44,082 nucleotides of DNA from Clostridia bacterium (lineage in GTDB: Bacteria; Bacillota; Clostridia; Oscillospirales; Acutalibacteraceae): assembly GCA_017481085.1 (NCBI GenBank), contig JAFUPS010000065.1, forward strand, positions 1 to 44,082, in the 5' to 3' direction. Under the pieces are notes generated by a model. It ran no database searches. It had not been told where the DNA came from and saw only the letters and a list, made by a program, of their open reading frames with translations. Positions within the stretch are counted from its first letter, which is position 1; every line of letters begins with the position of its first letter. This document shows, in pieces, positions 6,002 through 27,246 of this stretch. A program made the position numbers and the translations under genes.

Positions 6002-6013
6002 TGTACAACTAAA

Positions 6014-6047: not shown

Positions 6048-6061
6048 GTTGGATAGATGCG

Positions 6062-6955: not shown

Positions 6956-7284
6956 TGGCTACACCGCGCTTTCTGTAAAAAAATGTTTATTGATTGCCAT
7001 TTTATTATAGCATAATCTTAGTTTCTGTCAATCGGAAAAACGAAAAAAGTTGCTATTGCTTGGTAAATATATCTAAAATAATTAAATGAATTTAGCTGAA
7101 TTGGTAAGACTGGGCAAAGTTTCTGTGAAAAAAGTGCTCAAAAGGCCAAAACTTCATAAAAAAATGTTAAATGCCATAAAGATGTGTTAGCATTTCGATA
7201 TGCTTGATGCTACACTATAATTGTCAAATTGGGAGATATCCCAAAAATATGTACTCTTTTGCATAAAAGAAAGGGGAAATAGTC

Positions 7285-8373
7285 ATGAAAAAAACATTCG
7301 TAATGCTTTTAGCTTTGGTGTTGATAGCAGGCGTTTTGGCTCTGCCGGTCAACGCGGCGGATAGCGCTGTAGCGCGTGTGTACCTCGATGCACCGGCACA
7401 GGCGGCCTCCGGCGAGGAAATCGGCGTGGCGCTGTACGTCAACGGTAACAGCGCTTCGGGCGGCGTGCAAGCTACCATTAGCTACGACAACAATAAGCTG
7501 GATTACGTCAGCGTTTCGCTCCGTAGCGATGTGACCGCGCTTGGCAATAACGAGGACGTTACGGTCAAGGTGGATGAGTCGACCGGTACGATCAAGTTTG
7601 TCGGGCTGTCCAACGTAGCCGGCGGCACGGCTCCGTCGGATGCATGGGCGACCTTCAAGTTTACCGTGAAGATGAGTACTGCCAACGATTCCACCGACGT
7701 GACGCTGAGTAACGTGAAGGTGTCGGATAAAGACGGTGTCAATCTGTTGGATACCACCACCGTCAACACGGCCGTGTCGGTGATCACCATCGGCGTGAAC
7801 GATTACGTCGATATGGATGGTGCGACCATCAAAACGGATATCAGCAAGCAGGGTCTGCGTTTTCAGGCGACGCCGGATGCAGCGACCATCGGTAGCCTGA
7901 GCAACATCAGCGAGGTGGGCGTTGTGATGATGCCGGCTGACCTGCTGTATGAGGAGCAGGATCTGACTGCGGATACGATCGGCAAGGGCGGCACGACGCC
8001 GGCGGTTGCCAAGATCAGCTCCACGGTAAACGCCGACCTGCTGGATGACGTACAGTCTGGTGATCTCGTGTACGCGACGCTGACAAACGGTACCACCGGT
8101 GGCCGTGCGAACTACACGATCGTGGCCCGTGCTTACATCGTAGTGAATGGTGAGACCATCTACAGCCACAATACGATCTCCGATAAGAACATTGCCGACG
8201 GCGAGGCTGTGAAGACGTTGGCCTCGGTTGCGCAGGCGATTGCCAAGGAGGAGATCGCCGGTGGTGCGACCGAGACTGCCGAGATCACCGCGATTTTAGC
8301 AAAGGATACGCTTACCGATGAGGAAGTGACCGCGCTGCTGACCTTCTGCCGTGACAACATCAGCGAACTGTAA
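7285..8373 (+). CDS. Secreted protein with an N-terminal cohesin-like domain and a C-terminal domain of unknown function
   Basis: The signal peptide is MKKTFVMLLALVLIAGVLALPVNA. Residues 30-170 show a cohesin-like pattern (VYLDAP..ASGEEIGVALYVNG....VQATISYDNNKLDYVSV...GTIKFVGL...WATFKFTVK...VTLSNVKVSD). I saw no SLH, LPXTG or TM anchor. Confidence 0.5.
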   Translation: MKKTFVMLLALVLIAGVLALPVNAADSAVARVYLDAPAQAASGEEIGVALYVNGNSASGGVQATISYDNNKLDYVSVSLRSDVTALGNNEDVTVKVDESTGTIKFVGLSNVAGGTAPSDAWATFKFTVKMSTANDSTDVTLSNVKVSDKDGVNLLDTTTVNTAVSVITIGVNDYVDMDGATIKTDISKQGLRFQATPDAATIGSLSNISEVGVVMMPADLLYEEQDLTADTIGKGGTTPAVAKISSTVNADLLDDVQSGDLVYATLTNGTTGGRANYTIVARAYIVVNGETIYSHNTISDKNIADGEAVKTLASVAQAIAKEEIAGGATETAEITAILAKDTLTDEEVTALLTFCRDNISEL

Positions 8374-8383
8374 GAGGGGGTTG

Positions 8384-8536
8384 ATGTACGTGAATACGAA
8401 GTATTTGACGCCGCGGGCAGAGGTTGCCCGTCTGCTGCCGACCAATATTACCACCGTTTCGGTTGAGGGCGGCTGGAAGGACGAGTGGGACGAAGAATTG
8501 GACAACGATACGGCCGAGGCTTCGGACCAGGCATAA
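8384..8536 (+). CDS. Possible small (50 aa) protein with an acidic C-terminus
   Basis: The ATG at 8384 lies 5 nt after GAGGGGG and just downstream of the cohesin gene stop. It ends just before the terminator. There is no recognisable family. Confidence 0.3.
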   Translation: MYVNTKYLTPRAEVARLLPTNITTVSVEGGWKDEWDEELDNDTAEASDQA

Positions 8537-8544
8537 AATTTTCA

Positions 8545-8589
8545 AAAAGAGAGAGTACTCTCTCTTTTGTGGAACGAGTCCGTTCCACA
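8545..8589 (+). terminator. Tandem hairpins (terminator)
   Basis: A perfect 24-nt palindrome AAAAGAGAGAGT/ACTCTCTCTTTT lies at 8545-8568. It is followed by TGTGGAACG-agtc-CGTTCCACA at 8568-8589. Confidence 0.65.
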
Positions 8590-8639
8590 AACCCTTTACA
8601 ATTAAGGTATATATGTACGCGTGTTATAAGGAGCAAACT

Positions 8640-10130
8640 ATGAAAAAGATTTTGTGTGTATTGCTGGTCCTCGCGATGTTGCTCAGCTTCACGGCGTGCG
8701 ACAGCGAGCCGGAAGTTGAATTAAACGTCCCCGAAGGCAAACCGACCTACGCCGATGATAAAGAGCTGGAGCTGTACGCATACGCCGGTCCCCGAAGCGG
8801 CGGCTATCGCTGGCAGGTAAACGGCGAGACCCACCCGGACGATCCGGCAGGCGGTTGGGACGGGTTCATTACCGAAAAAGATTTCCAGGATTACATTGAT
8901 TGCGGCTTTACGTTCCTCTATCCGGAGTACGATGGCAAGGCGTATCGTAACGCAGCCGATCTGCAAGTTCCGTTTGAGCAGAGTACGCTGTACGAGTACA
9001 TGTCTCTGGCTGAGAAAATGAATATCGACGTGGTGGTTCAGGACGATACCGTCACGCAGCTGACCAGAGGCACCTCGCCGCTGATGGATGACGATATGAA
9101 AGCGTACGTCAAGCAACTGATCGACGATCTGTCCACCTTTGAATGCTTCAAAGGCCTGACGCTTGCGGACGAGCCGAAGGTAAACAATTACCGCATTTTT
9201 GAGCAGGTGACCAACTTCGCCCGTTCGGTCAAAGCCGATATCGAGCTGATCACCTGCATGCTGCCGGTCTACGGTGCGCCGCACTTAAACGTCGGCACCG
9301 GTACGACGGCGGATTACCAGGAGTACATCGACGACTACGGCAAGCTGGACGGTCATTTCATTTATGACTTCTATCCGCTGCGCTGGTCGCCGGTGACTGG
9401 CAACTACCTGAAGAGACAGTGGTTCCAGAATCTCGAAATGGTCGCTAACAGCAGCAAGACCAACGGCTTTGAGACCGGCGTGGTCATCCAGTCCTGCGCT
9501 TACGGCGGTGTGGGCAACGAGGGTGTCGCAGACCACGCCCGCTCGGTGCTGACGCAGGCAGACGTCGGCTACCAGCTGTATACGTCGCTGGCCTACGGTG
9601 CCAAGACCATCGGTTACTTCACCTACTGGCAGCACCGTAGCGAAGGCCGCCCGGACATCAACGAAGGCTTCTACGATGCGATGGTCATGTACCCGAAGGA
9701 CAACGGCATGGAATCGGTCAAGACCGATACCTACTACGCCGTCAAGGCCGCCAACCTCGAGGTCAAGAAGTTCGATCACGTGCTGATGAGCTTCGACTGG
9801 GAAGGCACGATCGGCCTGAAGGGTACCGATAAATTCAAGACGATGATCGACATTCCGGAGTACACCAATCCGCGCATTGCCGAAGCGACCTCCACTGAGG
9901 ACGCGATCATCGGCTGCCTGAAGGACCAGAACGGCTACGACGGTTTTATGATCGTCAATGCCCTGGAGCCCAGCCTGGAACAGAGCGTTTCCGTCACCGT
10001 GAAATTCCGTGAAGCCTCCTCCGCGATCGCTTACGTCAATGGCGAGGAAACGGAAATTCAACTGGAAGACGGCAGCTATACGTTTAACCTTGACGCCGGT
10101 GCCGGTGTCTTTGTGATCCCGATCAAGTAA
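8640..10130 (+). CDS. Surface lipoprotein carrying an unassigned glycoside-hydrolase-like domain (paralog 1 of 3)
   Basis: The ATG at 8640 follows an AAGGAG RBS. The lipobox is MKKILCVLLVLAMLLSFTAC. It shares the motifs GFTFLYPE, GLTLADEP, YDFYP, VVIQS, YTSLAYGAKTIGYFTYWQH and the C-terminal GVFVIPI with 17192-18601 and 25705-27207. Confidence 0.55.
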   Translation: MKKILCVLLVLAMLLSFTACDSEPEVELNVPEGKPTYADDKELELYAYAGPRSGGYRWQVNGETHPDDPAGGWDGFITEKDFQDYIDCGFTFLYPEYDGKAYRNAADLQVPFEQSTLYEYMSLAEKMNIDVVVQDDTVTQLTRGTSPLMDDDMKAYVKQLIDDLSTFECFKGLTLADEPKVNNYRIFEQVTNFARSVKADIELITCMLPVYGAPHLNVGTGTTADYQEYIDDYGKLDGHFIYDFYPLRWSPVTGNYLKRQWFQNLEMVANSSKTNGFETGVVIQSCAYGGVGNEGVADHARSVLTQADVGYQLYTSLAYGAKTIGYFTYWQHRSEGRPDINEGFYDAMVMYPKDNGMESVKTDTYYAVKAANLEVKKFDHVLMSFDWEGTIGLKGTDKFKTMIDIPEYTNPRIAEATSTEDAIIGCLKDQNGYDGFMIVNALEPSLEQSVSVTVKFREASSAIAYVNGEETEIQLEDGSYTFNLDAGAGVFVIPIK

Positions 10131-10143
10131 AGGAGAGAGTACG

Positions 10144-11754: not shown

Positions 11755-11757
11755 TGT

Positions 11758-12687
11758 ATGAGCCGAACTCTTAACGGTATGGAAAGGATCAGGCGTCGGC
11801 GTGTCGCCTTCGCTCTGCTCCTGATGGCCTGGCCGGTATTTATGTTTGTATTCGGCCAGGTTCTCAACCTGAATATGTTCTACATGGCGTTCCATAACTA
11901 TGGACGTTACGGTACCGCCAACCCCATCTTCGTTGGCTTTGATAACTTCGTGGGCGTTTTCAGAATGTTCGACGAAACGATCATCGGCAACGAATGGGAA
12001 GCGGTAACCAACTCCCTGCAGGTCGCGGGCGTTACGCTGTTTATCAACGCCCCGATCTCCCTGCTGTTTGCGTACCTGCTGTTCTCCAAGGTCCCGGCTT
12101 ATAAGACGCTGCGTGCTTTGCTGTATCTGCCCTGCGTGACCTCTGCGGTCGTGCTGGTGCTTATCTTCCGCGGTGTCTTCGAATCCGGCCCGCTGGAGAT
12201 GGTGTATCAGCTGTTGGGCGTTGCGGATAAATATCCGGTCAACGGCTGGTTTGTGCAAGGCCGTGCCTGGCCGGTCATCCAGATCTTCAATATCTGGACC
12301 GGCTTCTCCACCAATATGTTGTTCTTCCTTTCGGCCATGAACCGCGTGTCGGACGACTTCGTGGAAGCCGCTAAGCTAGACGGTGCCACCGAGCCGCAGA
12401 TCTTCTTCAAGATCGTGTTGCCGCTCATCTCGCCGACGGTCACCACCATTATGACCATTTCGTTGGCGGCGGTGTTTGGCTGGGGCCAGCAATCCATGCT
12501 GTTTATGGGCGACTTCTCCGGTGCGGAGGGTACCTCGGCCATCGGTCTGACGATGCTGGGTATGGCCCAGAGCCGAAACTTCGGCGGTGCATCCGCCTAC
12601 GGTGTGTGCCTTACTCTGGTCGGCGCACCCATCACCCTGGCTATTCGTGCGTTGGGCAGAAAACTGTCCACCAACGAAGAGTATTAA
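11758..12687 (+). CDS. Carbohydrate ABC transporter permease (LplB/MalF-type)
   Basis: It has six hydrophobic segments and an EAA-like loop (DDFVEAAKLDGATEPQIFFKIVLP). Confidence 0.85.
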   Translation: MSRTLNGMERIRRRRVAFALLLMAWPVFMFVFGQVLNLNMFYMAFHNYGRYGTANPIFVGFDNFVGVFRMFDETIIGNEWEAVTNSLQVAGVTLFINAPISLLFAYLLFSKVPAYKTLRALLYLPCVTSAVVLVLIFRGVFESGPLEMVYQLLGVADKYPVNGWFVQGRAWPVIQIFNIWTGFSTNMLFFLSAMNRVSDDFVEAAKLDGATEPQIFFKIVLPLISPTVTTIMTISLAAVFGWGQQSMLFMGDFSGAEGTSAIGLTMLGMAQSRNFGGASAYGVCLTLVGAPITLAIRALGRKLSTNEEY

Positions 12688-12700
12688 GGGGGTGCGGATA

Positions 12701-13597
12701 ATGGCAAGAGTAAGAGAATACCGTAAAGATAAGGTCAAGACCCCCACTACCGTCGGCAGTGTGCTGTGGGCTGGCTTCAAATGGATCGCCTACGTGCTGA
12801 TGATCCTGTGCGCATTTTCCTTCGTGTTCGTGTTCGCATGGACGTTTATGAACTCCTTCAAAACGGCCATTGGCTATGCGGAGGACACCTTCTTTCTCCC
12901 CGAAGTATGGGATTTTGATAACTATGCGAAGGTGCTGCGCGAAATGCAGTATAAGTCCTACGGTCTGTTCGAGATGCTCGGCAACTCGGTGATCCTCATT
13001 GCGCTGGGCGTTATCAACGCGATGGTCTGGCCGCAGTTTGCCGGCTACGCCATGGCACGCTTTGAGTTCCCGGGCCGCAAGATCATCGAAGCCGCGGTCT
13101 ACGTGGCAATGATCATCCCGATCATCGGTACCACCAGTACCGTGATGCAGATCAAAATGGCCCTCGGTCTGTATGACACGTTCCTCGGCGAATTCCTGTT
13201 CGGCTCCGGCGCGCTGGGTATGGGCTCGATCATGTATACCACCTTGTACCGCGGCCTGCCGGCGGCCTACGCCGAAGCAGCGTATATCGACGGCGCAGGG
13301 GAGTGGAGAGTGTTTTTGAACATCTACTATCCGCAATCCGTTCCGCTGATGCTGATCTTCGTCATTCAGGGCGCTATCGGTACGTGGAACGACTACATGG
13401 GCCCGTATCAGATGCTCCCGACTCACCCGACATTGGCGCTCGGCTTGCACGAGATGCAGCAGCGCTTCGTCCACTTCGGCGGCGATTACCCGGTGATGTT
13501 CGCCGGCTTGATCCTGGCTATGGCTCCCGTTTTGATCGTGTATTCGATCTTTGCGGATAAGATCATGGGCAACACCGCTATGGGTGCGTTGAAGTAA
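12701..13597 (+). CDS. Carbohydrate ABC transporter permease (LplC/MalG-type)
   Basis: The ATG at 12701 follows an AAGGGGG RBS. The EAA loop is AYAEAAYIDGAGEWRVFLNIYYP. Confidence 0.85.
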   Translation: MARVREYRKDKVKTPTTVGSVLWAGFKWIAYVLMILCAFSFVFVFAWTFMNSFKTAIGYAEDTFFLPEVWDFDNYAKVLREMQYKSYGLFEMLGNSVILIALGVINAMVWPQFAGYAMARFEFPGRKIIEAAVYVAMIIPIIGTTSTVMQIKMALGLYDTFLGEFLFGSGALGMGSIMYTTLYRGLPAAYAEAAYIDGAGEWRVFLNIYYPQSVPLMLIFVIQGAIGTWNDYMGPYQMLPTHPTLALGLHEMQQRFVHFGGDYPVMFAGLILAMAPVLIVYSIFADKIMGNTAMGALK

Positions 13598-13708
13598 TAA
13601 CGATACTTCAGCAACCGGCAGGGGGGCCTTGCCGGAGAAGCTAATGTTCGTTATTGCGTAATTCTACGTTTGGATGCTTATTCACTATAATTAAAGGAGG
13701 TTATTCCT

Positions 13709-16700
13709 GTGCGTTTAACCAAGAAATTTGGAGCAGTCGTGCTCGCTTTGGCGCTGCTTATCAGCTGCCTGGGCGTATTCACGGTTTCTGCCGCTACCGA
13801 CACGGTGATGAATTTGGTCTCGTTCCGTGACAGTGCTACCGGCTATGCGTCGTACGATTATTCGGCGTCCTATACGGATGCATCGTGGCGTATGTTTTTT
13901 TACGGCGATGCTTCCCCGACGGATATTAACGCTGCTTTTGGCGATTACGTCGTCACGTGGGACAACGGCGGTGAGACCGGTCAGTCGGCCGTACAGTTGT
14001 ATCCGCAGAACGCCGATAACGGCATTATGTGGGCTGTTATCTGGGGCGTTCCGGCCGCAGATGCCCTGGTGGACGGTGCGACCGTAAAGATCGCTGCCGG
14101 CACCGGTACGACCGGCAGCGGAAACAGCATCACGCTGGCCCGTGACGTCGACATGAAGTGGCATGCCGATACCCAGAGATGGGAGTACATCGCTCCCGCA
14201 CCGAGCTATACCGGCAATGCGTTGGCGTACAGCTCATCTAACGCGGGCAGCGGTTTTTACGCTTCCAGCGCAGACTCTATTCCGTATAATACCGATTGGA
14301 ATTATCGTTACTTCCCCATTGGGACACAGGGCGAAATCACCCTTATTCGTAACGGTGTGGAGACCAAACTGCCGAATGCGTATTTCCAGAAGATTGGCGC
14401 CTCGTCGTATTATATTAACGTCGAAGCTGGTGGCACACCTGTGCAGGCAGGCGATACCATCCGCATATCCGGCATATTTGGTCTGGGCGATTGGACGAAG
14501 GCGTGGGTCATCGGCTGGTTCCCGGGCACTTATGTAGAAATCCCGGAAGCCGTCTTTGATTTCGACGGCTCCAACTGGAGTGCCGGCTACGTACTGAGCG
14601 ACGATGCCGTCGTGCTGACTCACTTGGACGTCATTGCGGCGCACCAGTCGGCAACCGCCTTTTACACGAGCCTCCCGGAAGGCACTACCGGCTTGACTAT
14701 CGATAATGATTGGTATACGCGTTTCTACCCGATGACCAACCAGGACGGCGGCTTTGTAAACGGCACGGCCTACGCCAATCGTTTTGCGTTGGATGGCGGT
14801 GGTGGCATGCCGATCCAGAGCTCGGCCGGTGCGGCTGGTCTGTACGTGAGTGGTTTTGGCACGGCGACTGAAGGCACGACCGTCACCATCATGGGTGATT
14901 TCTACGGTTATAACCGTAACACCGGTGTGATGACCGGTGAGCAGATAACGCTGTATGCGCCGGTCACCTTCACCTACAGCGGCGGTGTGTGGACGCGCAC
15001 TTCCGAGATTCCGGAGATCCCGGTCTCTTGGAACTACCACGACTTTACGATTTCCGGTGTCAGTCAGGTGATCGAGAACGCTGCGACGACTGGTTATCGC
15101 CATTTCTACCTGAATATCAACGGCGAAGTCCCGGGCGACTGGGATAAGTTCGAGCACCTGCAGCTCGCCGTCAACGATGGTGAAAAATTTGGCGTTCGCG
15201 TTGGCAACAACGGTTCGACCTCCGTTATCTGCTTTGACGTGTATAAGGATTACATGCCCGCGTCGATCGACGTTGGAACGACCCTTACGCTCTATGCCGG
15301 TGCGGCGACACCCGCCGCTGATGCTGTCAATGTCAATGCCGATGACGCCATTCGTCTGACGCAGGATTGCACGCTGGTGTGGGATGGCTCCGGATGGGTG
15401 CTGGAAGAGGATTACAATCCGATCAGCTATACCAATCTGACCATCACCGGTGCGATTGAACCATCTGGTTTAAATACCGACAGCGGACGTTGGGATTTCT
15501 ATCTGTCTGTTGACGGTACTATCCCGGGCGTGGCTGACAGCGGCTATAGCTTCGCACCTATCAAAGCGATCTATAAAGATGCCGTCGGCAATACGATTCT
15601 GGAAAAGAACTTTACCTTCACCCATGCCGCTCACGGTAACGGCACGTTCTTTGCTTACGTCGAATTCACCGAGCTGACAGCCGATGCTTTGCCGGCCGGC
15701 TCGCATGTCACCTTCTATGCCGGCAAGGCGGATCCGACCACCGGTTCCGAAGGTATCAATATTACAAATGATTTCTCGCTCGAGTGGAACGGCAGCGAGT
15801 GGGTGACACCGGATCTTACTGTGTATGAGGATGTTGCTCTGAGCGCCCCGGAAAACGGTTGGAACGCTGAGCATTCCTGGTGGGATATCTATCTCACGTC
15901 CGATATCATTCTGCCGGGTACTGCCTGGGAGACTGCCTATAAGGATATCGTTGTGGAATACGGCGACGGTGCAACCGCCAATGGTCTGGCTGTCAAGAAG
16001 GCCGGCGATAAGCGGTTGAACGTCTTCTTCACAAGCGATGCTCCGGCTGTCGGTACCAAGATCACCATCAAGGCCGGCAAGTCCAAAGCGTATAACAATT
16101 CCACCGGCGTGGTGGATACGACCGCCAACGGCATCAACATCGTGTCGGATTATGTGATGGTCTGGACCGGTACCGGATTGGTGCCGGCGGCAGATTATGT
16201 GGTGTATAATGACCTCACTCTGACCGGCACGGTCAATCCGACCGGCTGGAGCGGCTCGATTTGGAACTTCTATCTGAGCGTTGATGGTACCATTCCGGGC
16301 GTGGGTGACAGTGGTTATTACTTCACACCGGCTTACATCACTGTGGTGGATGGCAACGGCAATACGCTGCTTAACAAATTTGAGAGAAACTTGGCTTTTG
16401 CGGCACATCAAACGACGCTGTTCTTCAACATTGACGCCAGCTCGCTGCCGTATGCCAGCGTGACCGAGGGCACCGTTCTGACTATCCACAGCGGCAAGAT
16501 GGATCCGATCTCCTGGGAATCCATTGCCCGCAACGAAGACGGCTATCAGATCGGTATCAACGTGCAAAACGACCTTGTGCTTGTGTGGGACGGCGCGTCG
16601 TGGATCAACTACCTCGACCGCTCCGGCTACACCGTGTACGAGGGCTCGGTATCCACGAAGGGTGCTGAAGTCGATCCGTCCACGCCGCCGCACCTGTATC

Positions 16701-18601: not shown

Positions 18602-18697
18602 TTCTTTGTGAAAAACGGCGAAAGCCCTCTCGCAATCGAGAGGGCTATCCCGGATTTTAGCAATCTTTTCCAAACCTCGCATGAAGGAGGCAAATTT

Positions 18698-21600
18698 ATG
18701 AAACTTAGCAAACGCATTCTTACAATTGCGCTGTCAATTATTATGCTGTTGAGCGCTTTGGCGGTGCCGGTCGTTGCTGCCAACGACTTGACGGTCGCCG
18801 GTGTACATAACTTCAGCACGGTCGCCGGGGACTGGCGGTTCTGGCTGAACATGGAAGGCACCTGGCCGGTCAGCGATAGCTTTATAGCATTTACCGCTCC
18901 TGCGGTGAGTATCAACGACACTACGCTCGATTCTGCTGTTATTGAGACCTACAAAGACGGCGATAGGTTGTTGCTGTGTCTGTGGGGCCCGTTGACCGGT
19001 GGCGTCACGCCGAAGGCCGGCGATACTGTCGTTGTCAAAGCAGGGCAGATCTCTGCCGCCTCCGGCACTGCCAATATTGCCGAGGATGCCGTGTTGGTTT
19101 ACGACGGTTCGGCATGGAATCTGCAAGTTCAGGTCACTTATTATGATGCCAAATTGACCTTTACGGAGGCACAGACAAGCTCCGCGGCGAATTATCTCTA
19201 TATGAGTGCATATTGCGATATGCCTTGGGATGCTGGTTATAGCGACTGGCACGTTAAGATGAAGGCTGCCGATGCTGATAGCGGCGTCTTCCTCAACGGC
19301 ACCAAGGCTGTCGATGCGCAGATTGTCCCGTACGGAGAGGTATGGACCGAGACGGGTGCCGTCACCGATTGGTGGTACTATATTGAACTGTTCGGTACAG
19401 CTGTTGCCGGCGACGAACTTACCATCAAGGGCAAGTTTGCCTATGGTAATATCGGTATCAACGTGGCGGAGATCACGATGACCTATGACGGCAGCGCATG
19501 GACCGTCAAAGAAGCGGAAGAAGAGGATACTGCTGTCGAGATCCCGTATCTCGATGTGATCGACCAGTCGCACCTGCAGAATGCGACCTCGTTCTATACG
19601 GCAGTGCCGGATGCGTCCATCGCACTGACCGACAGCAAGGCCGACTGGAGCAACCGCTTCCTGCCGGTAGGCGAGGAGGACGGTGCGTTCTTCAACGGCA
19701 CTCGCTTTGACGTGGATGGCGGTGGCGGCCTGGCGTATCAATCGTCTGCCGGTGTGGCCGGTTTCTATATCAATGGCTTTGGAACGGCTGTTGCCGGTGA
19801 CAAGGTTACGATGCAGGGCCGCTTTGCTTCGGCTAAGACCGGCGAAGTGTTCAAGCTGATCGCTCCGGTGGAATTCACCTATGACGGCAGCAAATGGACG
19901 CGCACCTCCGAGAAGCCGGATTACGTGCCGGACGAAAAGGTTTATGATAACAACTACACCGGTACGCTGACCACCGTCGGCGCAGAGACCACCGGTGCGG
20001 CCCACCAGCTCTACCTCAAGGGCGATGCCGGTCTAGATCTGTACAAAGTCAACGTGACCGACTGGTCGGTTCGTCTGACGGTTGCTGTCGGCGATGATAA
20101 CGGCGTGTTCCTCAACGGCAACAAAGTGGCTGGCGGCTCACTGTTTAAGTACGGCGATGCTGACAACTACTGGTTTGCCGAAGGCTTTACCGCTACGACC
20201 GGCGATGTGATCACCATCAAGGGCGATTTTGTTAACGATGCACAGTCGGCGAAGGTGACTATTACCGAATGCCAGTTCCAGTGGGATGGTTCTAAATGGA
20301 TCGATTGCGTTCCGTCTGTTGAGCCGGAGTGGACGTATCACGATTTCACCATTACCGGTGTCAACGTGGTGCAGAACAATACCGCCAGCAACGGCTACCG
20401 TTATTTCTATCTGAATATCAACGGCGAAGTTCCGGGCAACTGGGATAAGTTCGAAGGTCTGCAGTTTGCTGTCAACGGCGGCGAGAAGTTCGACGTTCGC
20501 GTTGGCAATAACGGCAGCACAGGCGTGATCTGCTTTGACGTACACACTAGCCATATGCCGGCAGATATTCCGGTCGGTACAACCATTACGTTGTATGCCG
20601 GTGAAGCGCCTGCCGCTTCGGATGCAGCCAATGTTGCGGCTACCGACGTGATTCGCCTGGTCGCGGATTATACACTGGAGTGGAACGGCACCGAATGGGC
20701 TGCTCCGACCGATGAGCCGACCTACGTCGATGTGATGCTGTCCAATCCGTTACACGGCTGGAATAATGAGCAGTCCTGGTGGGATATTTATCTCAATACC
20801 GATGCCGCTCTGCCGGGTACGAATTGGGAGACCGTCTACAAAGATATCGTCGTCGAGCTCGACGGTACTGCTGTCAGCGGTGCGACTGTTCAGAAGGCCA
20901 ATAACGACCGCGAACTCAATGTTTTCTTCACTGACGATACGGCGCCGATTGCCGGTACCAAAGTGACGGTCAAGGCCGGTAAATCGCTGGCTTATGTGAA
21001 AGCGACCGGCGAATTGAACGCCGATCTGGACGGCATTAACATCACGGCCGATCATTCCTATATCTGGGATGGCGGCAAGCTGGTGCTCGAGAGCGAATAC
21101 CAGCCGCCGGTGGAATTCACGTATTACGATTTCACCGTCAGCGGTCTGAATCAGTACATTGATAATCTGGCTAATGACTACCGTCATTTCTACCTCGCCA
21201 TTAACGGCGCTGTCCCGGGTAACTGGGATAAGTTCGAAGGTCTGCAGGTTGCGGTCAACGGCGGCGAGAAGTTCGACGTTCGCGTTGGCAATAACGGCAG
21301 CACAGGCGTGATCTGCTTTGACGTACACACTAGCTACATGCCGGTGGATATCGCCGTTGGCACGACGTTGACGATCTACGCCGGCGAGGCGCATCCGGCT
21401 GCTGATGCAGCGAACGTGGCTGCCACCGACGCTATCCGTCTGGGTGCGGATTACACGCTGGAGTGGAATGGCAGTGCCTGGGTGCTTCCGGGTACGGAAA
21501 TCGAGTATACCGAATACACCGGTACGCTGACCACCGTTGGTGCGGAGACCGGTAACACCAACAACAACCACATCTACTTTGCCGGCAGCGCTACCCTGGA

Positions 21601-24600
21601 TGCCTACAAGGTCAACACGACCAACTGGGATGTCCGCCTGGTTCCGGTGGAGGACGGTGTGAGCGGTGTGTACCTCAACGGCATCAAGATGCCGGGCGCT
21701 ACCGTCTTCAAGTACAACGATGCGGCTAACAGATGGTTTGCGGAAGGCTTTATTGCCTCTGAGGCCGGTGACAAGGTAACCATTAAAGGCTCCTTTGTCA
21801 ACGATATGCAGGCGGCCAAGGTCATCATCGAGGAATGCTCCTTCATTTGGAACGGCTCCAAGTGGGAGGATGAGCAGACCGATATCGACTACAGCCAGTA
21901 CACCGCATACAACGGCACGCTGACCACCTTCGGTGCGGAAGCGACCGGTAAGAACAACCAGATCTATTTCAAGGGCGATGCCGGTCTGGCTGAGGTCTTC
22001 AACGATCTGATCGCGGCTGATAAAGAGGCCGGTAACGAAACCAACGGTTGGAACACGTCCATGCTGTATGCGCTGAAGGGCGAAGAAAACGGTTTCTTCC
22101 TCAACGGCGCCAAGGTCGATGCGCTGGAATTCCAGAAGTACAGCGATATCAACAACGGTTGGTTTGCAACCGGCTTTATCGCAGAGGTGGGTGACGTGCT
22201 CACCATCAAGGGCTCTTTTGCAAACGATGCGCAGCAGGTGCTGATCACATTCACCGAACGCAGCTACATCTGGGACGGCAACAAGTGGGCCGACGACGTG
22301 CCGGATACCACCGTGTATACCGATATCACGCTGACCGGTATGACTCTGCCGAACTATAGCGATGACGAATACGATCACTGGATCCTGCACCTCACCTACA
22401 ACGGCACCCTGCCGTCTGTGCACGGAGAGCGTTTTGAGAATCCGATGACCTACATCGATGGCGTTCGCGTATCGGATGGCAATATGTCTTTCTATGACGA
22501 TAGCGCCAGCGGCTTGCTGCTCGACCTGTGGGTGCAAGGCCTGAAGGACGAGGGTCCGGCTGTCGGCCAGAAGATCACCGTCAAAGCCGGCAAGCTCAAG
22601 AGCAAGTCTAACCCGGACGTTGGTATCAACATTACCGAAGATATCACGTTTGAGTACAACGGTACGAAGTGGATCATCGAGGGCTGGGTGGATACCACTG
22701 TCTACGAGGAGATCACCCTGAAGGACGATCCGATCTCCCCGAGCGGTTACCGCGATACCAGCAACCGCTGGGATTTCTACATCCCGTTTGACGGCACGAT
22801 CTCCGTTGAGCCGGATAACAACGGCCGCTTCGATTTCATCAAGGTGTCGGTCGTGGACGGCAGCGGCAAGAAGCTGCTGGATAAGGTGGACGTTATCGCT
22901 CACCACGCGGCTCACGGCAACACGACCGTGTTCTTCATTCTGGAAAACACGCTGCTCTCCAAGGATGCTGTCACGGCGGGCACGGTTCTGACGATCCATG
23001 CCGGCAAGGCGGCTCCGAGCGGCAATTCGATCAACGGTATCAACGTGACCGCTGATTACCAGATCAAGTGGAACGGTGATGCGTGGATCAACCCGAACTA
23101 CGTGGAGATCCCGTCGAAGGAAACGGTTACGTTGCAGTTGGACAAAAAGACGGATTACGGCGGCAATGAGAACGGTATCTACTTGCTCACCACCGACCAC
23201 TTCCCGGTCGATAAAGAGTGGAAGACGCGCATCTCGGCGGTCAGCTACGATGCTGATAGTGGCGTTTTCTTCAACGGTGAGAAGGTATACAACTCCAGCC
23301 TCTGCCGTTTTGACGACGGCAAGGTGTACGTGACGCTGGCGGATGCCGGCATTCTGGCGCAGGATAAGGACAAGGTCACGATCAAGGGTCTGTTCGCATT
23401 GGACGGCTACGGTGTTACCTACAAGGAACTTACCTTGTACTATAACGGTGTCGAGTGGGGTACCACCTATACGAAGGCCCCGGAAAAGACCTGGACCAAG
23501 TTCCAGATCGAAGGCATCAACACGGTGACCAGCTACAATTCGGTTTCCAAGCAGTGGAACATCTATCTTAACCTGAGCAATATGATCCCGGGCGATATTG
23601 ACGATATGAGCTTCAACGGTATGAAGGTCGTCGTCAACGGTCAGGAATACGATCTGTTTACGGCACACTCCTACCAGCATACGCTGTATTGCTACATCCC
23701 GGGCGACATCCTGCCGAACAAGGGTGTGGATGGCACGGCGGTCACCATCAAGGCCGGCAAGGCGATGGGTGAGGACCGTCACAGCGGTATTGAGTTGACG
23801 AAGGATTTCACCTTCTACTATTACAAGGGTGCGCTGAACGCTAAGAAACCGACCACCAATACCACCTGGCACGACGTAACGGTCACCCGTATGAATCAGA
23901 CGAAGGCGTTTGATCCGGCGACCGGTGAATGGCGTTTCCACCTGATCATCCGCAGTTCTCTCGAAGAGGTGGAGAACAATACGGTGTTTGGCGAACTTCC
24001 GTTGGTAGTCAACGGTGTCAAGCACGAGGTCACGGCGATGCTTGACAACTCCTATCTGTTTATCCGTATTCCGGAAAGCGTGATGGGCGACGTGCAGAAG
24101 GCAACGATCAAGATCCCGGCCGGTGCTACGGCGATCGGTGATGCCGGTTATCACGGCCTCAAATTCACCAACGAGTGGACCGGCTACGTGTTCAACGGTG
24201 TCCTGGCTGAAACGGATTACACCGAGGCAACCCGCCAGAAGGCGAACATCCTCGGCGTGCAGGCGATCACTCCGGGTGTGGACCGCGATCACGTGTATCT
24301 GCGCCTGAACAAGGAAGTATATGGTACCGCGTGGTACGAAGGCTACACGGGCTTCACCTATTACTACAATGGTAAGCTGATCACCACCGACGCATTCAAG
24401 AGCGAGAGCTCCAACAACAAGTTTATGTATTTCCCGATCGTTCACAAAGACGTCGGCGGCACCGCCAAGGAAGGCGACAAGATCGTCATTAAACCGGGCG
24501 CTGTCGGCAAGGGCGGCGGTTACGAGCTGGAGATCACAAACGAGTTTACGCTGGTCTTCAGCGGCGGCTTGTGGACGCAGTATGTGGATTCCGATGTCCA

Positions 24601-25633
24601 GGCGCCGACCAATGATAAGACGCTGTGGGAGGAGTATCGCTTTGGCGAGGGCTTTATCCCGACGATCAAGGAAGGCAATTCGGTACTGTGGTCGAACGAA
24701 GATTCCTACCACAGCATCGAATCCATCGACAAGCACGGCGATTACACCTTCACCTTCGAGGCGACCAAGAAGTACGACGACGAGGTCGTGCCGCCGTTCT
24801 ACGTGATCATGCGCGGTAACCAGATCAGCGAAGAAGATCCGATGACCGCCGAAATGCTGTACGGTTACGTCATTCAGTTTGCGGCTCTCGAAATCGACGA
24901 TCCGGCAAATCCGGGCGAGAAGATCTGGTCGCAGTACATCAACCTGTGGAAAAACGGTATCAACGGTTCGCTGATCGACCAGTATCGTATCACCTATATC
25001 CACGATCAAACCGATCACCCGTTCTTCGAGTATGAGGAGACCTACAAGTATGAGTTCTCCGTTTTCAACATCTCGGAAACGATGGCATGCATCACTGTGA
25101 AGATCAACGATCGTCTGGCACTTCGTTACTACGATGTCGCCAGCAGCGATCCGTTTGATCCGGCTATCAACGACGGCACCTTCGGTGTTTACGCCAGCTG
25201 CCCGGGTTATATCACCAGCGAGCCAATCGAGCTGGAACAGATGATCGTGGCGAAGGATACCTGCTACGTTGGCGATGGCGTCCGTGTGGCGGCAACCTAT
25301 CCGTCTATTCTGGATGGCGCCGTATTCACGGTTGACAGTGAATTCGCCACCGTGGTCGACGGTGTGTTCCGTGCAGACAAAGCGGGCGTATACACCATCT
25401 CCTGCACCTACAACGGTAAGGATCTCGGTTCCAAGACCATCACGGTCGAGGATCCGCCGAGGCGTACCGATACGGAGGCAGAGGAAGGCGAATTCCCGTG
25501 GCTGATCGTCGGCATTGCCGGCGGTGCGGTCGTCATCGCGGTGGCCGCTCTGTTCGTTATCTTGGCTGTTGCCAAGAAGCGCAAGGCTGCTGCTGCGGTT
25601 GCAGAAGCTGAGCAACCGACCGCGACGGAGTAA
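18698..25633 (+). CDS. 2311-aa cell-surface protein: signal peptide, about 15 repeat modules related to those of the upstream gene, a jelly-roll-like domain, an Ig-like domain and a C-terminal TM anchor
   Basis: The ATG at 18698 follows a GAAGGAGG RBS and the signal peptide is MKLSKRILTIALSIIMLLSALAVPVVAAND. The C-terminus is PWLIVGIAGGAVVIAVAALFVILAVAKKRK plus a 17-aa tail. There is no LPXTG and no catalytic motif that I recognise. Confidence 0.7.
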   Translation: MKLSKRILTIALSIIMLLSALAVPVVAANDLTVAGVHNFSTVAGDWRFWLNMEGTWPVSDSFIAFTAPAVSINDTTLDSAVIETYKDGDRLLLCLWGPLTGGVTPKAGDTVVVKAGQISAASGTANIAEDAVLVYDGSAWNLQVQVTYYDAKLTFTEAQTSSAANYLYMSAYCDMPWDAGYSDWHVKMKAADADSGVFLNGTKAVDAQIVPYGEVWTETGAVTDWWYYIELFGTAVAGDELTIKGKFAYGNIGINVAEITMTYDGSAWTVKEAEEEDTAVEIPYLDVIDQSHLQNATSFYTAVPDASIALTDSKADWSNRFLPVGEEDGAFFNGTRFDVDGGGGLAYQSSAGVAGFYINGFGTAVAGDKVTMQGRFASAKTGEVFKLIAPVEFTYDGSKWTRTSEKPDYVPDEKVYDNNYTGTLTTVGAETTGAAHQLYLKGDAGLDLYKVNVTDWSVRLTVAVGDDNGVFLNGNKVAGGSLFKYGDADNYWFAEGFTATTGDVITIKGDFVNDAQSAKVTITECQFQWDGSKWIDCVPSVEPEWTYHDFTITGVNVVQNNTASNGYRYFYLNINGEVPGNWDKFEGLQFAVNGGEKFDVRVGNNGSTGVICFDVHTSHMPADIPVGTTITLYAGEAPAASDAANVAATDVIRLVADYTLEWNGTEWAAPTDEPTYVDVMLSNPLHGWNNEQSWWDIYLNTDAALPGTNWETVYKDIVVELDGTAVSGATVQKANNDRELNVFFTDDTAPIAGTKVTVKAGKSLAYVKATGELNADLDGINITADHSYIWDGGKLVLESEYQPPVEFTYYDFTVSGLNQYIDNLANDYRHFYLAINGAVPGNWDKFEGLQVAVNGGEKFDVRVGNNGSTGVICFDVHTSYMPVDIAVGTTLTIYAGEAHPAADAANVAATDAIRLGADYTLEWNGSAWVLPGTEIEYTEYTGTLTTVGAETGNTNNNHIYFAGSATLDAYKVNTTNWDVRLVPVEDGVSGVYLNGIKMPGATVFKYNDAANRWFAEGFIASEAGDKVTIKGSFVNDMQAAKVIIEECSFIWNGSKWEDEQTDIDYSQYTAYNGTLTTFGAEATGKNNQIYFKGDAGLAEVFNDLIAADKEAGNETNGWNTSMLYALKGEENGFFLNGAKVDALEFQKYSDINNGWFATGFIAEVGDVLTIKGSFANDAQQVLITFTERSYIWDGNKWADDVPDTTVYTDITLTGMTLPNYSDDEYDHWILHLTYNGTLPSVHGERFENPMTYIDGVRVSDGNMSFYDDSASGLLLDLWVQGLKDEGPAVGQKITVKAGKLKSKSNPDVGINITEDITFEYNGTKWIIEGWVDTTVYEEITLKDDPISPSGYRDTSNRWDFYIPFDGTISVEPDNNGRFDFIKVSVVDGSGKKLLDKVDVIAHHAAHGNTTVFFILENTLLSKDAVTAGTVLTIHAGKAAPSGNSINGINVTADYQIKWNGDAWINPNYVEIPSKETVTLQLDKKTDYGGNENGIYLLTTDHFPVDKEWKTRISAVSYDADSGVFFNGEKVYNSSLCRFDDGKVYVTLADAGILAQDKDKVTIKGLFALDGYGVTYKELTLYYNGVEWGTTYTKAPEKTWTKFQIEGINTVTSYNSVSKQWNIYLNLSNMIPGDIDDMSFNGMKVVVNGQEYDLFTAHSYQHTLYCYIPGDILPNKGVDGTAVTIKAGKAMGEDRHSGIELTKDFTFYYYKGALNAKKPTTNTTWHDVTVTRMNQTKAFDPATGEWRFHLIIRSSLEEVENNTVFGELPLVVNGVKHEVTAMLDNSYLFIRIPESVMGDVQKATIKIPAGATAIGDAGYHGLKFTNEWTGYVFNGVLAETDYTEATRQKANILGVQAITPGVDRDHVYLRLNKEVYGTAWYEGYTGFTYYYNGKLITTDAFKSESSNNKFMYFPIVHKDVGGTAKEGDKIVIKPGAVGKGGGYELEITNEFTLVFSGGLWTQYVDSDVQAPTNDKTLWEEYRFGEGFIPTIKEGNSVLWSNEDSYHSIESIDKHGDYTFTFEATKKYDDEVVPPFYVIMRGNQISEEDPMTAEMLYGYVIQFAALEIDDPANPGEKIWSQYINLWKNGINGSLIDQYRITYIHDQTDHPFFEYEETYKYEFSVFNISETMACITVKINDRLALRYYDVASSDPFDPAINDGTFGVYASCPGYITSEPIELEQMIVAKDTCYVGDGVRVAATYPSILDGAVFTVDSEFATVVDGVFRADKAGVYTISCTYNGKDLGSKTITVEDPPRRTDTEAEEGEFPWLIVGIAGGAVVIAVAALFVILAVAKKRKAAAAVAEAEQPTATE
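20471..20551 (+). repeat. 81-nt segment identical to 21254-21334 (copy A), inside otherwise diverged paralogous modules
   Basis: GTCAACGGCGGCGAGAAGTTCGACGTTCGCGTTGGCAATAACGGCAGCACAGGCGTGATCTGCTTTGACGTACACACTAGC is present at both positions. Confidence 0.9.
21254..21334 (+). repeat. 81-nt segment identical to 20471-20551 (copy B)
   Basis: The string is the same as copy A. The flanking roughly 45 nt upstream are near-identical, and identity decays further out. Confidence 0.9.
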
Positions 25634-25704
25634 TTGTAAAACAGCATAACCGGTGGGGCAGAGAGATCTGCTCCCACCGGTCATGCTGCTATCGGAGAAC
25701 CTGT

Positions 25705-27207
25705 ATGAAAAAATTAACAAAACCTTTCTATCCGGACGATCGCCGGATAGAAGAAACGGCCTATATGGGGCCTCGCCGTGCCGGCAAACGCTTTTGGGCG
25801 GGTGAGTACGGTAAAAACCCGCGTGATCCAGAGGGCGGTTATCCGTCTTTTGTCACCGATGAGGTGTTTGAAGATTACAAAAATGCCGGCTTGACATTCC
25901 TGATGCCGGAAGGCGATGCATACTTCGAACAGAAGTTTACGGAAACTGGATTGGCCTTTGAACCGGATTTTGAAAAGAGCCCGCTGTACGCCTTTATGGA
26001 AATGGCAGAAAAGCATGGACTGGACGTATATCCGGCGTGTGAGGCTATTTTCGGCAACATGACGCATACGGACGGCCCGTTTGGGGATGAAGAAAAATGC
26101 ATCGTCCGTCATTTCGTTGAAACGGTGCAGAAGTATTGCCCAAAGAGCTTCAAGGGTATCATGCTGACAGACGAACCCGGTATTGCCTCCATCGGCCGCG
26201 TAAAGAAGATCGTCGAGTATCTGAATTCCGATGAGATCCGTGCCATCAAGCCGGATCTGGACGTTTTCTCGTCTATGCTGCCGAACTACGCAACGCTGCC
26301 GAGCTATCAACTGGGATATCAGTATCCGGATCGCACCAAGCAGTTTGTCGTATTTGATGAGGAACGCAAGGGCCTCTACGCAAACTTTATTGATGCCTGT
26401 GCCGACGCGGTGGGCGAGTTCAGCTTTGACTTTTATCCGTTGGGTGAAAAGGGCCGTCTGTCGCCCGGGTTTTATCAAAACCTGGAAATGGCTGCCGAAC
26501 ATGGACGCGACGGGAATTTTCCGATCTCGGTCACGTTGCAGAGCTTTATGATGTTGTATAAGTACAACCATAAGACCGGCCGCGGTATCATCATCTATCG
26601 ATCACCGTCTTACGAGGACGTGCGTTGGCAGGTATATTCGTCGCTGGCATTTGGTGTGCAGCGTCTGGGTTGGTTTACCTTCTGGCAGCATTACAGCGAG
26701 AGTGAGCACGAGATGTTCCCGAACGCGATGGTTATCTACGATGAGTGCGAAAAGAGCGGTTACCGCAAAACCGATATCTATCACGCGGTGGCGAAGGTCA
26801 ATCGCGAGATCCAGGCTATCGACCACGTTTTTCTCCGCTTTCAGTGGAAAGGTTGCCGTAAGATCGCTACCAGCCGTGACCGCAACATTCGCCTGTTGGA
26901 AGGCGGATACGCCGGCGGTTGCCTGCGGACGCTGACCGGCACGCGGGATACGCTGCTTGGATGCTTCGAAAATCCGGAGGACGGCGCCGAGGGCTATTGG
27001 CTTGTGAATGCACATAATCCATATTGGCTCCTGCAAAACGACGTTAGCGTGACGTTTGCCGGTGCCACACATGTGCTGTGCTATCGCAACGGCGAGGAGC
27101 AGGTGCTGCCGCTTGAGCAGGTTACCGAAAACGGCGAGACCTGCGGCAAACTGTCGATGCGCTTGAGCTGCGGCGAAGGCGTGTTTGTCATCCCGTATAC
27201 CGAATAA
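25705..27207 (+). CDS. Cytoplasmic (no signal peptide) GH-like protein (paralog 3 of 3)
   Basis: The start is MKKLTKPFYPDDRR, with no hydrophobic leader. The motifs are GLTFLMPE, GIMLTDEP, FDFYP, VTLQS, YSSLAFGVQRLGWFTFWQH and C-terminal GVFVIPY. Confidence 0.55.
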   Translation: MKKLTKPFYPDDRRIEETAYMGPRRAGKRFWAGEYGKNPRDPEGGYPSFVTDEVFEDYKNAGLTFLMPEGDAYFEQKFTETGLAFEPDFEKSPLYAFMEMAEKHGLDVYPACEAIFGNMTHTDGPFGDEEKCIVRHFVETVQKYCPKSFKGIMLTDEPGIASIGRVKKIVEYLNSDEIRAIKPDLDVFSSMLPNYATLPSYQLGYQYPDRTKQFVVFDEERKGLYANFIDACADAVGEFSFDFYPLGEKGRLSPGFYQNLEMAAEHGRDGNFPISVTLQSFMMLYKYNHKTGRGIIIYRSPSYEDVRWQVYSSLAFGVQRLGWFTFWQHYSESEHEMFPNAMVIYDECEKSGYRKTDIYHAVAKVNREIQAIDHVFLRFQWKGCRKIATSRDRNIRLLEGGYAGGCLRTLTGTRDTLLGCFENPEDGAEGYWLVNAHNPYWLLQNDVSVTFAGATHVLCYRNGEEQVLPLEQVTENGETCGKLSMRLSCGEGVFVIPYTE

Positions 27208-27212
27208 CAACA

Positions 27213-27246
27213 AAAACGCTTTGGTGAAAACCAAAGCGTTTTTAAT
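27213..27246 (+). terminator. Rho-independent terminator closing the polysaccharide locus
   Basis: AAAACGCTTTGGT-gaaa-ACCAAAGCGTTTT followed by a T-rich tail. Confidence 0.8.

Follow-up and report, generated by a model that had tools for sequence, protein, structure and literature searches.

Gram-positive polysaccharide utilization loci (PULs) of the CUT1-importer type bring together a regulator, a lipoprotein substrate-binding protein, two permeases and co-directionally encoded extracellular and cytoplasmic enzymes, receive the ATPase of their ATP-binding cassette (ABC) importer in trans and are conserved as clusters across genomes. The bifidobacterial galacto-N-biose/lacto-N-biose (GNB/LNB) pathway comprises an extracellular biosidase, a binding protein with an ABC importer and a phosphorylase of glycoside hydrolase (GH) family 112, and cellulosomes and amylosomes are typified by the joint use of cohesins and dockerins. 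Here we describe a locus at positions 7285–27207 of contig JAFUPS010000065.1 (assembly GCA_017481085.1) from a Clostridia bacterium of the Acutalibacteraceae; the window is the whole stretch of 44,082 nucleotides (nt) that was analyzed, which is also contig k141_882982 of the ENA metagenome assembly ERZ28018670. The locus shares each of the above features with the Gram-positive PULs, but differs from them in that all three of its enzymes are paralogs of one family, its repeat modules belong to no known carbohydrate-binding module (CBM) family and it encodes a giant non-catalytic anchor protein. As in cellulosomes and amylosomes, a type I dockerin in an enzyme and a cohesin protein are encoded in one locus; however, the single cohesin is on a small secreted protein with no recognizable anchor, there is no multi-cohesin scaffoldin and the dockerin sits inside its protein, with the modules on one side and the catalytic domain on the other. 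Thus, the type of system (a PUL-like locus that combines an ABC importer with a cohesin and a dockerin) is already known; the enzyme family, the module family and the anchor domain are undescribed. Our literature search found no description of the enzyme family or the locus, dbCAN not having been run, so that a very recent CAZy family is conceivable.

In the working that we propose, a glycan that is large or insoluble would be retained on the cell surface both by the 2311-amino-acid (aa) protein anchored in the membrane and by the 1630-aa enzyme through its eight modules, with the dockerin placing the latter enzyme on the locus-encoded cohesin protein. This enzyme and its lipoprotein paralog would cut the glycan extracellularly, the binding protein and two permeases would import the oligosaccharides powered by an ATPase encoded elsewhere, and the leaderless paralog would finish the same type of linkage in the cytoplasm, with the divergently encoded AraC protein governing expression. 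The bonds in question would be beta-linked N-acetylhexosaminides, cleaved with retention: the 2-acetamido group that the substrate carries would act as the nucleophile, polarized by Asp156, and Glu157 would serve as the acid/base. We put the probability of such a PUL-type capture–cleave–import–finish system with substrate-assisted catalysis on beta-linked N-acetylhexosamine (HexNAc) at roughly 45%. Its system-level part, i.e., capture, cleavage, import and intracellular finishing, we hold to be very probable.

The three enzyme domains are true paralogs, 28–35% identical to one another, with the key residues common to all. As a preliminary description made from the sequence alone had proposed, they are specific to different compartments, being marked by a lipobox, a signal peptide and the absence of a leader, respectively. 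The lipoprotein paralog (whose mechanically called open reading frame, ORF, begins at TTG 8424, the lipobox-bearing start being at 8640) is 35% identical to the cytoplasmic one and retains all key residues; its orthologs are 41–66% identical across the related loci L017–L039. The cytoplasmic paralog has 70 orthologous clusters of 486–528 aa at 47–97% identity, and of its 81 homologous clusters in a collection of 5.8 billion proteins, not one is named or carries a Pfam domain. The enzyme domain itself gave no match in Pfam (also at E ≤ 10), NCBIfam or the PDB (with phmmer and profiles). The AlphaFold model of the cytoplasmic enzyme (pLDDT 95.3, pTM 0.94) displays eight beta-alpha units forming a triosephosphate isomerase (TIM) barrel, followed by a C-terminal beta-sandwich. 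Its PDB neighbors in Foldseek searches are clan GH-A-type enzymes (GH51 arabinofuranosidases, PslG of GH39, a GH164 mannosidase, GH35 galactosidases, GH140 and GH157 enzymes and GH66 dextranases); the E-values range from 1e-12 to 1e-8, yet the TM scores are only 0.4–0.5 and the sequence identity is about 10%.

A connection by sequence came from distant, cultured members of the family. A 404-aa protein of Paenibacillus mendelii matches the C-terminal third of the Pfam GH42 profile (PF02449; E 2.7e-12) and aligns with the sequences of GH42 crystal structures, and an ortholog from P. contaminans is labelled beta-galactosidase/GH42 by NCBI and UniRef. PF02449 is matched only by the distant Paenibacillus members and only over profile positions 233–376; the three window paralogs do not match it even at E ≤ 10, and no match to the GH42 trimerization domain was found. 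The family resembles GH42 in having a (beta/alpha)8 barrel followed by beta domains, an Asp-x-Tyr-Pro motif on strand 6, a GA..I.YF.W motif on strand 8 and a Glu ending strand 4. It differs from GH42 in that the strand-7 nucleophile Glu is Leu, Ile, Val or Met, the Asn-Glu pair is Asp-Glu and the window proteins show no GH42 match. By these alignments and the predicted fold, the enzyme domain is a remote GH42 relative with a clan GH-A barrel that lacks the nucleophile, and it falls outside the definition of GH42 because there is neither the nucleophile Glu nor a profile match. The preliminary description could place neither this domain nor the modules in a named CAZy or CBM family by eye; the profile searches likewise gave no assignment, but the catalytic domain can now be given a place. 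In the Pfam searches the window proteins matched neither Glyco_hydro_20 nor DUF4091 (GH123), and sequence and profile searches of the PDB gave no match; the GH112 profiles Lact_bio_phlase, LBP_M and LBP_C were likewise unmatched, although they work, since a true GH112 from the related locus L040 scores E 7.5e-170. Membership in GH123, GH163 or GH185 was considered and dropped, there being no DUF4091 or DUF4838 matches within the family; the DUF4838 genes seen in related loci are neighbors, not homologs.

The catalytic prediction rests on residue counts over 246 collected family sequences. The position of the GH42 nucleophile (278) is occupied by Leu in 106, Ile in 88, Val in 28 and Met in 11 (233/246) and by Asp or Glu in none; the GH42 nucleophile motif L-M-E-(S/Q) aligns with F-I-Q-T of the Paenibacillus member and with T-L-Q-S, V-I-Q-S and T-M-Q-S of the window paralogs. 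Asp156 is found in 225/246 and Glu157, at the C-terminal end of strand 4, in 226/246; in other words, the Glu of the GH42 Asn-Glu acid/base pair is kept and the residue preceding it is Asp, a position assigned by strand order and not by a significant alignment. On strand 6, Asp242 is present in 231 sequences and Tyr244 in 234. In the GH42 enzyme BiBga42A, E160 is the acid/base and E318, at the end of strand 7, the nucleophile, whereas N159 and D285 form hydrogen bonds with O2 of the -1 subsite galactose and Y287 is catalytically important (PMC10688820). In the above order, these residues correspond to E157, L278, D156, D242 and Y244 of the family, which would thus appear to keep the -1 subsite framework of GH42 with two changes, namely Asn to Asp beside the acid/base and the nucleophile Glu to a hydrophobic residue. 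GH20 enzymes employ substrate-assisted catalysis with an Asp-Glu pair. The consecutive Asp-Glu motif of GH123 likewise serves substrate-assisted catalysis via the 2-acetamido group (PMC11087588). With GH20 and GH123 the family shares the adjacent Asp-Glu ending strand 4 of a TIM barrel, the absence of an enzymic nucleophile, a conserved Tyr that could stabilize the oxazolinium and an occurrence in host-glycan-type loci; it differs in lacking any sequence or Pfam kinship to them and in having fold neighbors in clan GH-A, not in GH20 or GH123. We infer that these two changes from GH42 are together the signature of enzymes to which the substrate supplies its 2-acetamido group as nucleophile. Because the nucleophile Glu has become hydrophobic and the Asn of the acid/base pair is now Asp, we tentatively predict that the family cleaves beta-N-acetylhexosaminides by substrate-assisted catalysis.

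The same alignments allow other readings of the active site. Since E69 and D71 on strand 2 are fairly well conserved and the ancestry lies in GH42, the paralogs might instead be ordinary glycosidases (e.g., beta-galactosidase-like) acting on a plant or microbial polysaccharide, either with another carboxylate (Glu69/Asp71 of strand 2 or Asp242 of strand 6) in place of the nucleophile or by inversion, within a fiber-degrading, cellulosome-like locus. We consider this unlikely: E69 is present in only 147/246 sequences, with Gln, Leu and Ala variants, D242 matches the sugar-O2-binding Asp that GH42 also has, and in all clan GH-A families known to us the nucleophile is on strand 7. A reading of the GH27/GH31/GH66 type, with Asp156 as a strand-4 nucleophile and Asp242 as a strand-6 acid/base (GH66 being among the fold neighbors), was dropped because the Asp-x-Tyr-Pro motif proved to be the sugar-O2/O1-binding motif of GH42. 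The loss of the canonical nucleophile, coupled with the likeness of the giant Ig-like repeat proteins to adhesins, might also point to a catalytically dead, lectin-like pseudo-enzyme in a locus devoted mainly to adhesion or surface display. This is highly improbable given that the Asp-Glu-Pro and Asp-x-Tyr motifs are invariant over hundreds of clusters, that the leaderless cytoplasmic paralog is kept as an orthologous group of its own and that a carbohydrate ABC importer and known glycosidases are closely linked with the domain.

The case for a system of enzymes deployed in successive compartments draws on the distribution and synteny of the family. At E ≤ 1e-3, 1e-10 and 1e-30, a profile search of 1.84 billion cluster representatives recovered 5049, 3307 and 913 members, respectively; many of these are multidomain proteins of 1000–1900 aa that end in the enzyme domain or have it close to their C-terminal end. 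When one genome per species was scanned, 227 relatives were obtained, most of them in metagenome-assembled genomes (MAGs) from the gut. The main carriers are Lachnospiraceae, Faecalimonas, Acutalibacteraceae, Oscillospiraceae and unclassified Clostridia from goat, cattle and buffalo hindgut; others are Borkfalkia and Scatosoma from chicken and MAGs from human Hadza and Nepali samples, with distant members in Paenibacillus, Cohnella, uncultured Bacilli/Mollicutes, Armatimonadota and others. A survey of gene neighborhoods revealed the core locus in numerous other MAGs from the gut. The full order AraC, cohesin, lipoprotein enzyme, binding protein, permease, permease and modules-plus-dockerin-plus-enzyme is kept in L023, L024 and L025, and the core without the cohesin in L007, L010, L019, L029, L030, L032, L036, L078 and others; overall the core is found in at least ten further loci, in MAGs of Faecalimonas, Acutalibacteraceae, Ruminococcus and Tyzzerella. 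The divergent AraC gene is retained upstream of L019, L021–L025, L029, L030, L036 and L078, and L007 and L010 have, as in the window, all three compartment types and the giant anchor protein in one cluster. Several such loci can occur within a single MAG, e.g., RGIG2058 (L003/L025, L023, L026). As the same gene order recurs in independent MAGs, the layout of the locus is not due to chance. The layout of capture, depolymerization, import and finishing outlined in the preliminary description is thus borne out at the level of genes in L023, L024, L025 and further loci, with the functions themselves being predicted ones. The lipoprotein, secreted and leaderless paralogs constitute separate orthologous groups, and since the ABC importer of distant Bacilli loci is likewise framed by a lipoprotein member and a short cytoplasmic one, the compartment-specific paralogy appears to be an old, conserved feature.

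Turning to the giant proteins, iterated profile searches inside both of them delineated modules of 115–135 aa each, in two sub-types that detect each other. The 1630-aa protein has exactly the eight modules, dockerin and enzyme domain first read from its translation (as seen by jackhmmer, Pfam and paralog alignment, respectively). The 2311-aa protein, the length of which matches a separate gene call, had been taken for a membrane-anchored protein of about 15 modules; the anchor and a count of exactly 15 hold, but it does not consist of modules only, since there is an additional conserved C-terminal domain of about 300 aa. The AlphaFold model of a module, built on an alignment of 23 modules (pLDDT 95.1), is a ten-strand Ig-like beta-sandwich. 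Foldseek searches of the PDB with this model retrieved only generic Ig-like domains, and because no match was better than E 5e-3 or TM 0.44, the modules, to judge from sequence and model, fall outside the described CBM and solved domain families. They have no Pfam match, and a module profile found nothing at E ≤ 1e-3 among 5.8 billion proteins, the domain being too short and divergent for such a search. Modules were seen solely in proteins of these loci, and across the 78 loci fetched they are limited to two types of protein: one with modules, usually a dockerin, and then the enzyme domain, an architecture common to many loci; the other with 7 to 15 modules, the conserved C-terminal domain of about 300 aa and a transmembrane anchor. 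This C-terminal domain, at 38–63% identity in 17 related proteins, is better conserved than the modules; it has no relative in Pfam or the PDB and only six unnamed fragments in the large protein collection. A terminator-like hairpin at 25526–25548 sits within the codons of the transmembrane helix of the 2311-aa protein and is almost certainly a by-product of Ala/Val/Gly-rich coding sequence. Opposite the two giant genes lie antisense ORFs of 1070 aa (15470–18682, minus strand) and 1656 aa (20750–25720, minus strand), with compositionally odd translations; rather than genes, these seem to be shadows of a coding strand that is GC-rich and repetitive.

The remaining components are of more familiar types, and Pfam matches within the locus are confined to the cohesin and dockerin, the binding protein and both permeases. 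All the elements first described, from the AraC gene and control region through the genes to the strong terminator, were found at, or within a few bases of, the positions originally given for them. Their order and strand are unchanged, but the nine co-directional genes of that account become ten once the tiny ORF is counted (nine are itemized in Table 1), with intergenic gaps of 3 to 111 nt; the whole unit from the AraC gene to the 14-bp-stem terminator spans 6062–27243. Translations disclose AXA-type signal peptides on the cohesin protein and both giant proteins, and lipoboxes on the 496-aa enzyme and the binding protein. The cohesin protein has orthologs with 46–50% identity at the same position in L023, L024 and L025, its C-terminal half being kept in L025; Pfam and inspection of the translation detected no S-layer homology, sortase or transmembrane feature and no CBM in it. 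The tiny acidic ORF downstream is itself conserved: tblastn identified a 49%-identical counterpart in the same place in L023 (4512–4646) and none in L024 or L025, i.e., in one of three syntenic loci. The importer is as first described, with a binding protein and two permeases and no ATPase gene in the locus; the binding protein has only a weak PDB relative, 9h0n, with no informative ligand.

In the control region, a perfect sigma-70-like promoter (TTGACA-16-TATAAT) for the AraC gene lies on the minus strand at 7031–7004, and weaker plus-strand candidates are found at 7050–7079 and 7221–7248. An Rfam scan of the window, including this region, gave no riboswitch, leader or other match. Given the hairpin that follows the tiny ORF and the possible promoter before 8640, the cohesin gene and tiny ORF may form a separate transcription unit.

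Table 1. Coordinates of the features of the locus (positions in the window; lengths in aa unless stated otherwise)
Feature	Position	Strand	Evidence or remark
AraC-family regulator, divergent from locus	6062..6955	-	Pfam HTH_18 E 4e-18, HTH_AraC E 9e-14
AT-rich divergent control region, 329 nt	6956..7284	.	GC 0.43 in 6001-7000 vs ~0.55 inside locus
Secreted protein, 362 aa: signal peptide, one cohesin (aa 39-166), C-terminal domain of ~190 aa	7285..8373	+	Pfam Cohesin PF00963 E 1e-11
Conserved acidic ORF, 50 aa (MYVNTKYL...GWKDEWDEE...)	8385..8536	+	best reading from ATG 8385; Shine-Dalgarno-like GAGGGGG upstream
Terminator-like hairpin and T run after tiny ORF	8548..8563	+	then TTTACA...TATA-like stretch before 8640
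Lipoprotein paralog of enzyme, 496 aa	8640..10130	+	lipobox MKKIL...LSFTAC
Large lipoprotein substrate-binding protein, 536 aa	10144..11754	+	SBP_bac_1 E 4e-12; TIGR03850 E 4e-14
ABC permease 1	11758..12687	+	BPD_transp_1 E 5e-15; similar to UgpA/MalF
ABC permease 2	12701..13597	+	BPD_transp_1 E 1e-12; similar to GlcU/UgpE/MalG
Secreted enzyme, 1630 aa: signal peptide, 8 modules, dockerin, enzyme domain	13709..18601	+	
8 Ig-like modules of 1630-aa protein	nt 13838-16996, aa 44-1096	+	jackhmmer
Type I dockerin of 1630-aa protein	nt 17018-17176, aa 1104-1156	+	Dockerin_1 PF00404 E 1.5e-8
GH42-derived enzyme domain (predicted), C-terminal in 1630-aa protein	nt ~17200-18601	+	aligns with paralogs
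Surface protein, 2311 aa: signal peptide, 15 modules, C-terminal domain, anchor	18698..25633	+	
15 Ig-like modules of 2311-aa protein	nt 18779-24580	+	jackhmmer
Conserved C-terminal domain, ~300 aa, of 2311-aa protein	nt 24581-25462	+	no Pfam or PDB match
C-terminal transmembrane anchor of 2311-aa protein, then KKRK	nt 25493-25573	+	
Leaderless (cytoplasmic) paralog of enzyme, 500 aa	25705..27207	+	N-terminus not hydrophobic
Intrinsic terminator closing locus	27212..27243	+	14-bp stem then T run

Clues to the substrate come from the neighbors and fusions of the family in related loci. The neighbors vary from locus to locus. Most frequent are GFO/IDH/MocA oxidoreductases, with 11 genes spread over 8 loci, and Metallophos phosphoesterases, with 8 genes over 7; next in the close clade are FGGY kinases, GH2-N, GH29, GH38, GlcNAc-2-epimerase-family, GH31-like, GH36, GH106-like and Y_phosphatase3 proteins. 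The distant clade has GH20, DUF4838, GH29, GH127-like, BNR, FucU, xylose-isomerase-like barrels and Na/Pi-PhoU. DUF4838 has the fold of GH163/GH185 (PMC10570127). The occurrence of GH20, GH29, GH38, DUF4838, BNR and one GH112 in these loci suggests a HexNAc-containing or host-type glycan. The most informative context for the substrate of the family is L040 (5784–18909), from an uncultured Bacilli MAG, which encodes permeases, a 763-aa protein, a lipoprotein member of the family, a binding protein, a MalK-type ATPase, the aforementioned GH112 (a lacto-N-biose/galacto-N-biose phosphorylase), a 394-aa cytoplasmic member and a 406-aa protein; the GH112 gene lies between those for the importer ATPase and the cytoplasmic family member. 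In joining a lipoprotein enzyme, a binding protein, permeases, an ATPase, GH112 and a cytoplasmic enzyme, L040 is reminiscent of the bifidobacterial GNB/LNB pathway, but it is a single distant MAG, and genes for GH112, a kinase or an epimerase are absent from the locus described here. In P. mendelii (L053, 9917–13927), adjacent genes code for the 404-aa cytoplasmic member and a 920-aa secreted member with large barrel insertions and both a cohesin and a dockerin on one polypeptide; they are preceded by a binding protein and a BadF/BadG-type ATPase, a type similar to sugar kinases. Taken together, the target is probably, as far as such neighborhoods indicate, a decorated HexNAc-containing glycoconjugate, with fucose, galactose, mannose or rhamnose decorations possible and with phosphorylation in several lineages.

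Part of this context would also suit fiber degradation by ordinary glycosidases: cohesin and dockerin are present, the source MAGs are from herbivore and high-fiber human guts, and the neighbors include GH36, GH4, GH106-like and GH127-like proteins and a fusion with a carbohydrate esterase of family 2 (CE2). However, no known CBM or plant-cell-wall GH is found in the window locus or in the 37 large relatives, and there is a single cohesin, with no scaffoldin. Those 37 large family members include 14 with a dockerin, two with a Metallophos fusion, one with Y_phosphatase3 and one with a CE2/GDSL esterase; a known CBM is found in none of them.

The phosphoesterases raise a further alternative, in which the family carries out glycosyl-phosphate chemistry alongside them, either as a GH112-like phosphorylase, with phosphate replacing the nucleophile, or by cleaving sugar-1-phosphate diesters such as those of teichoic acids, capsules or phosphomannan. 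GH112 is itself a GH42-like barrel without a nucleophile. Two unrelated phosphoesterase folds are fused to family members, Metallophos at the C-terminus of the proteins P0194 and P0226 and Y_phosphatase3 in P0207; as separate genes, Metallophos is found in 7 related loci and Y_phosphatase3 in others, with Na/Pi-PhoU transporters nearby. Nonetheless, we regard this alternative as quite improbable: there is no phosphoesterase gene within 7285–27207, no Pfam GH112 match was obtained, and two of the three paralogs are extracellular, whereas we know of no extracellular phosphorylases. Moreover, the conserved Arg24, Trp327 and His329 may match the sugar-binding Arg121, Trp326 and His369 of GH42 (PMC10688820), a comparison by strand position only, without alignment.

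Related observations were made at other loci. L076 (3762–7970) encodes a secreted Metallophos protein of 1402 aa with shared module-like regions. In P. contaminans and P. eucommiae (L061, 7316–14749; L067, 8892–13167), a family member lies amid a PhyH-type dioxygenase, two xylose-isomerase-like TIM barrels, a GFO/IDH/MocA oxidoreductase and two Metallophos genes, a set more like inositol or keto-sugar processing than the classical breakdown of glycans, and one that none of the explanations considered accounts for. PDB searches gave no informative subfamily for a neighboring Metallophos protein and only generic oxidoreductases and inositol dehydrogenases for a neighboring GFO/IDH/MocA protein.

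Several points weigh against the proposed capture–cleave–import–finish system with substrate-assisted HexNAc chemistry. The mapping of the active site depends on sequence alignment and strand order, and the N-terminal half of the domain, including the Asp-Glu strand, was placed by topology without a significant GH42 alignment. In some loci, hexosaminidase activity might already come from the GH20 and DUF4838 enzymes. The closest loci mostly have alpha-glycosidases (GH4, GH29, GH31-like, GH36, GH38, GH106-like), GFO/IDH/MocA oxidoreductases and phosphoesterases, a set that does not indicate HexNAc in particular, and GH112 is found in only one locus. As for the system, the cohesin protein has no recognizable cell anchor, and both the cohesin-dockerin pairing and co-transcription are assumptions. 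On the other side, the profile and structure searches did not assign all the domains of the locus to well-characterized CAZy or CBM families, the outcome that, by the preliminary description, would have spoken against an undescribed system. A bolder version of the proposal, which we consider doubtful, would have a GH42-type clan GH-A barrel switched to substrate-assisted chemistry in an unrecognized family of more than 900 clusters, which uncultured gut Clostridia would deploy as three compartment-specific paralogs along with a new family of Ig-like binding modules and a new, conserved anchor domain, possibly directed at phosphorylated HexNAc glycoconjugates (bacterial cell-wall glycopolymers or phosphorylated host glycans) that described PULs do not address. 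We know of no clan GH-A lineage reported to use such chemistry.

The genes flanking the locus are of mixed character. Upstream, a GH4 NAD-dependent glycosidase (4667–6001, plus strand) is closest to the alpha-galacturonidase LplD of Bacillus subtilis (3fef, E 5e-35), with a minus-strand ORF at 4613–5998 being its shadow. Its link to the locus is uncertain because it has its own divergent AraC regulator (3804–4616, minus strand) and the divergent regulator of the locus lies in between. Further upstream, a DUF3267 zincin-like protein (197–775) adjoins the gene for a 458-aa protein (1259–2635) whose Card1-like endonuclease domain is a weak match (E 1e-4, short of the Pfam cut-off); this protein may be a cyclic-oligonucleotide-responsive nuclease. 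Directly past the terminator, a three-gene unit (27293–30478) encodes a VTC-domain protein, a DUF4956 protein and a 606-aa protein of the Cthe_2159 family (beta-helix, carbohydrate-binding), followed by a divergent histidine kinase/response regulator pair (30518–32427). A SpoIVA gene downstream of the locus marks the host as a spore-forming member of the Clostridia.

If the catalytic prediction is true, the family would constitute a new CAZy-level family and a case of conversion within clan GH-A from an enzymic nucleophile to neighboring-group participation. As it is unannotated and, in the collections sampled, found mostly in MAGs of uncultured gut Firmicutes from ruminants, poultry and humans, a considerable fraction of the "hypothetical" genes of gut metagenomes would gain a function, and a so-far invisible glycan niche of the gut would become testable. 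Glycan-binding tools might be drawn from two new candidates, the module family and the anchor domain, and the minimal pair of one cohesin and one dockerin would extend the use of such modules beyond cellulosomes and amylosomes.

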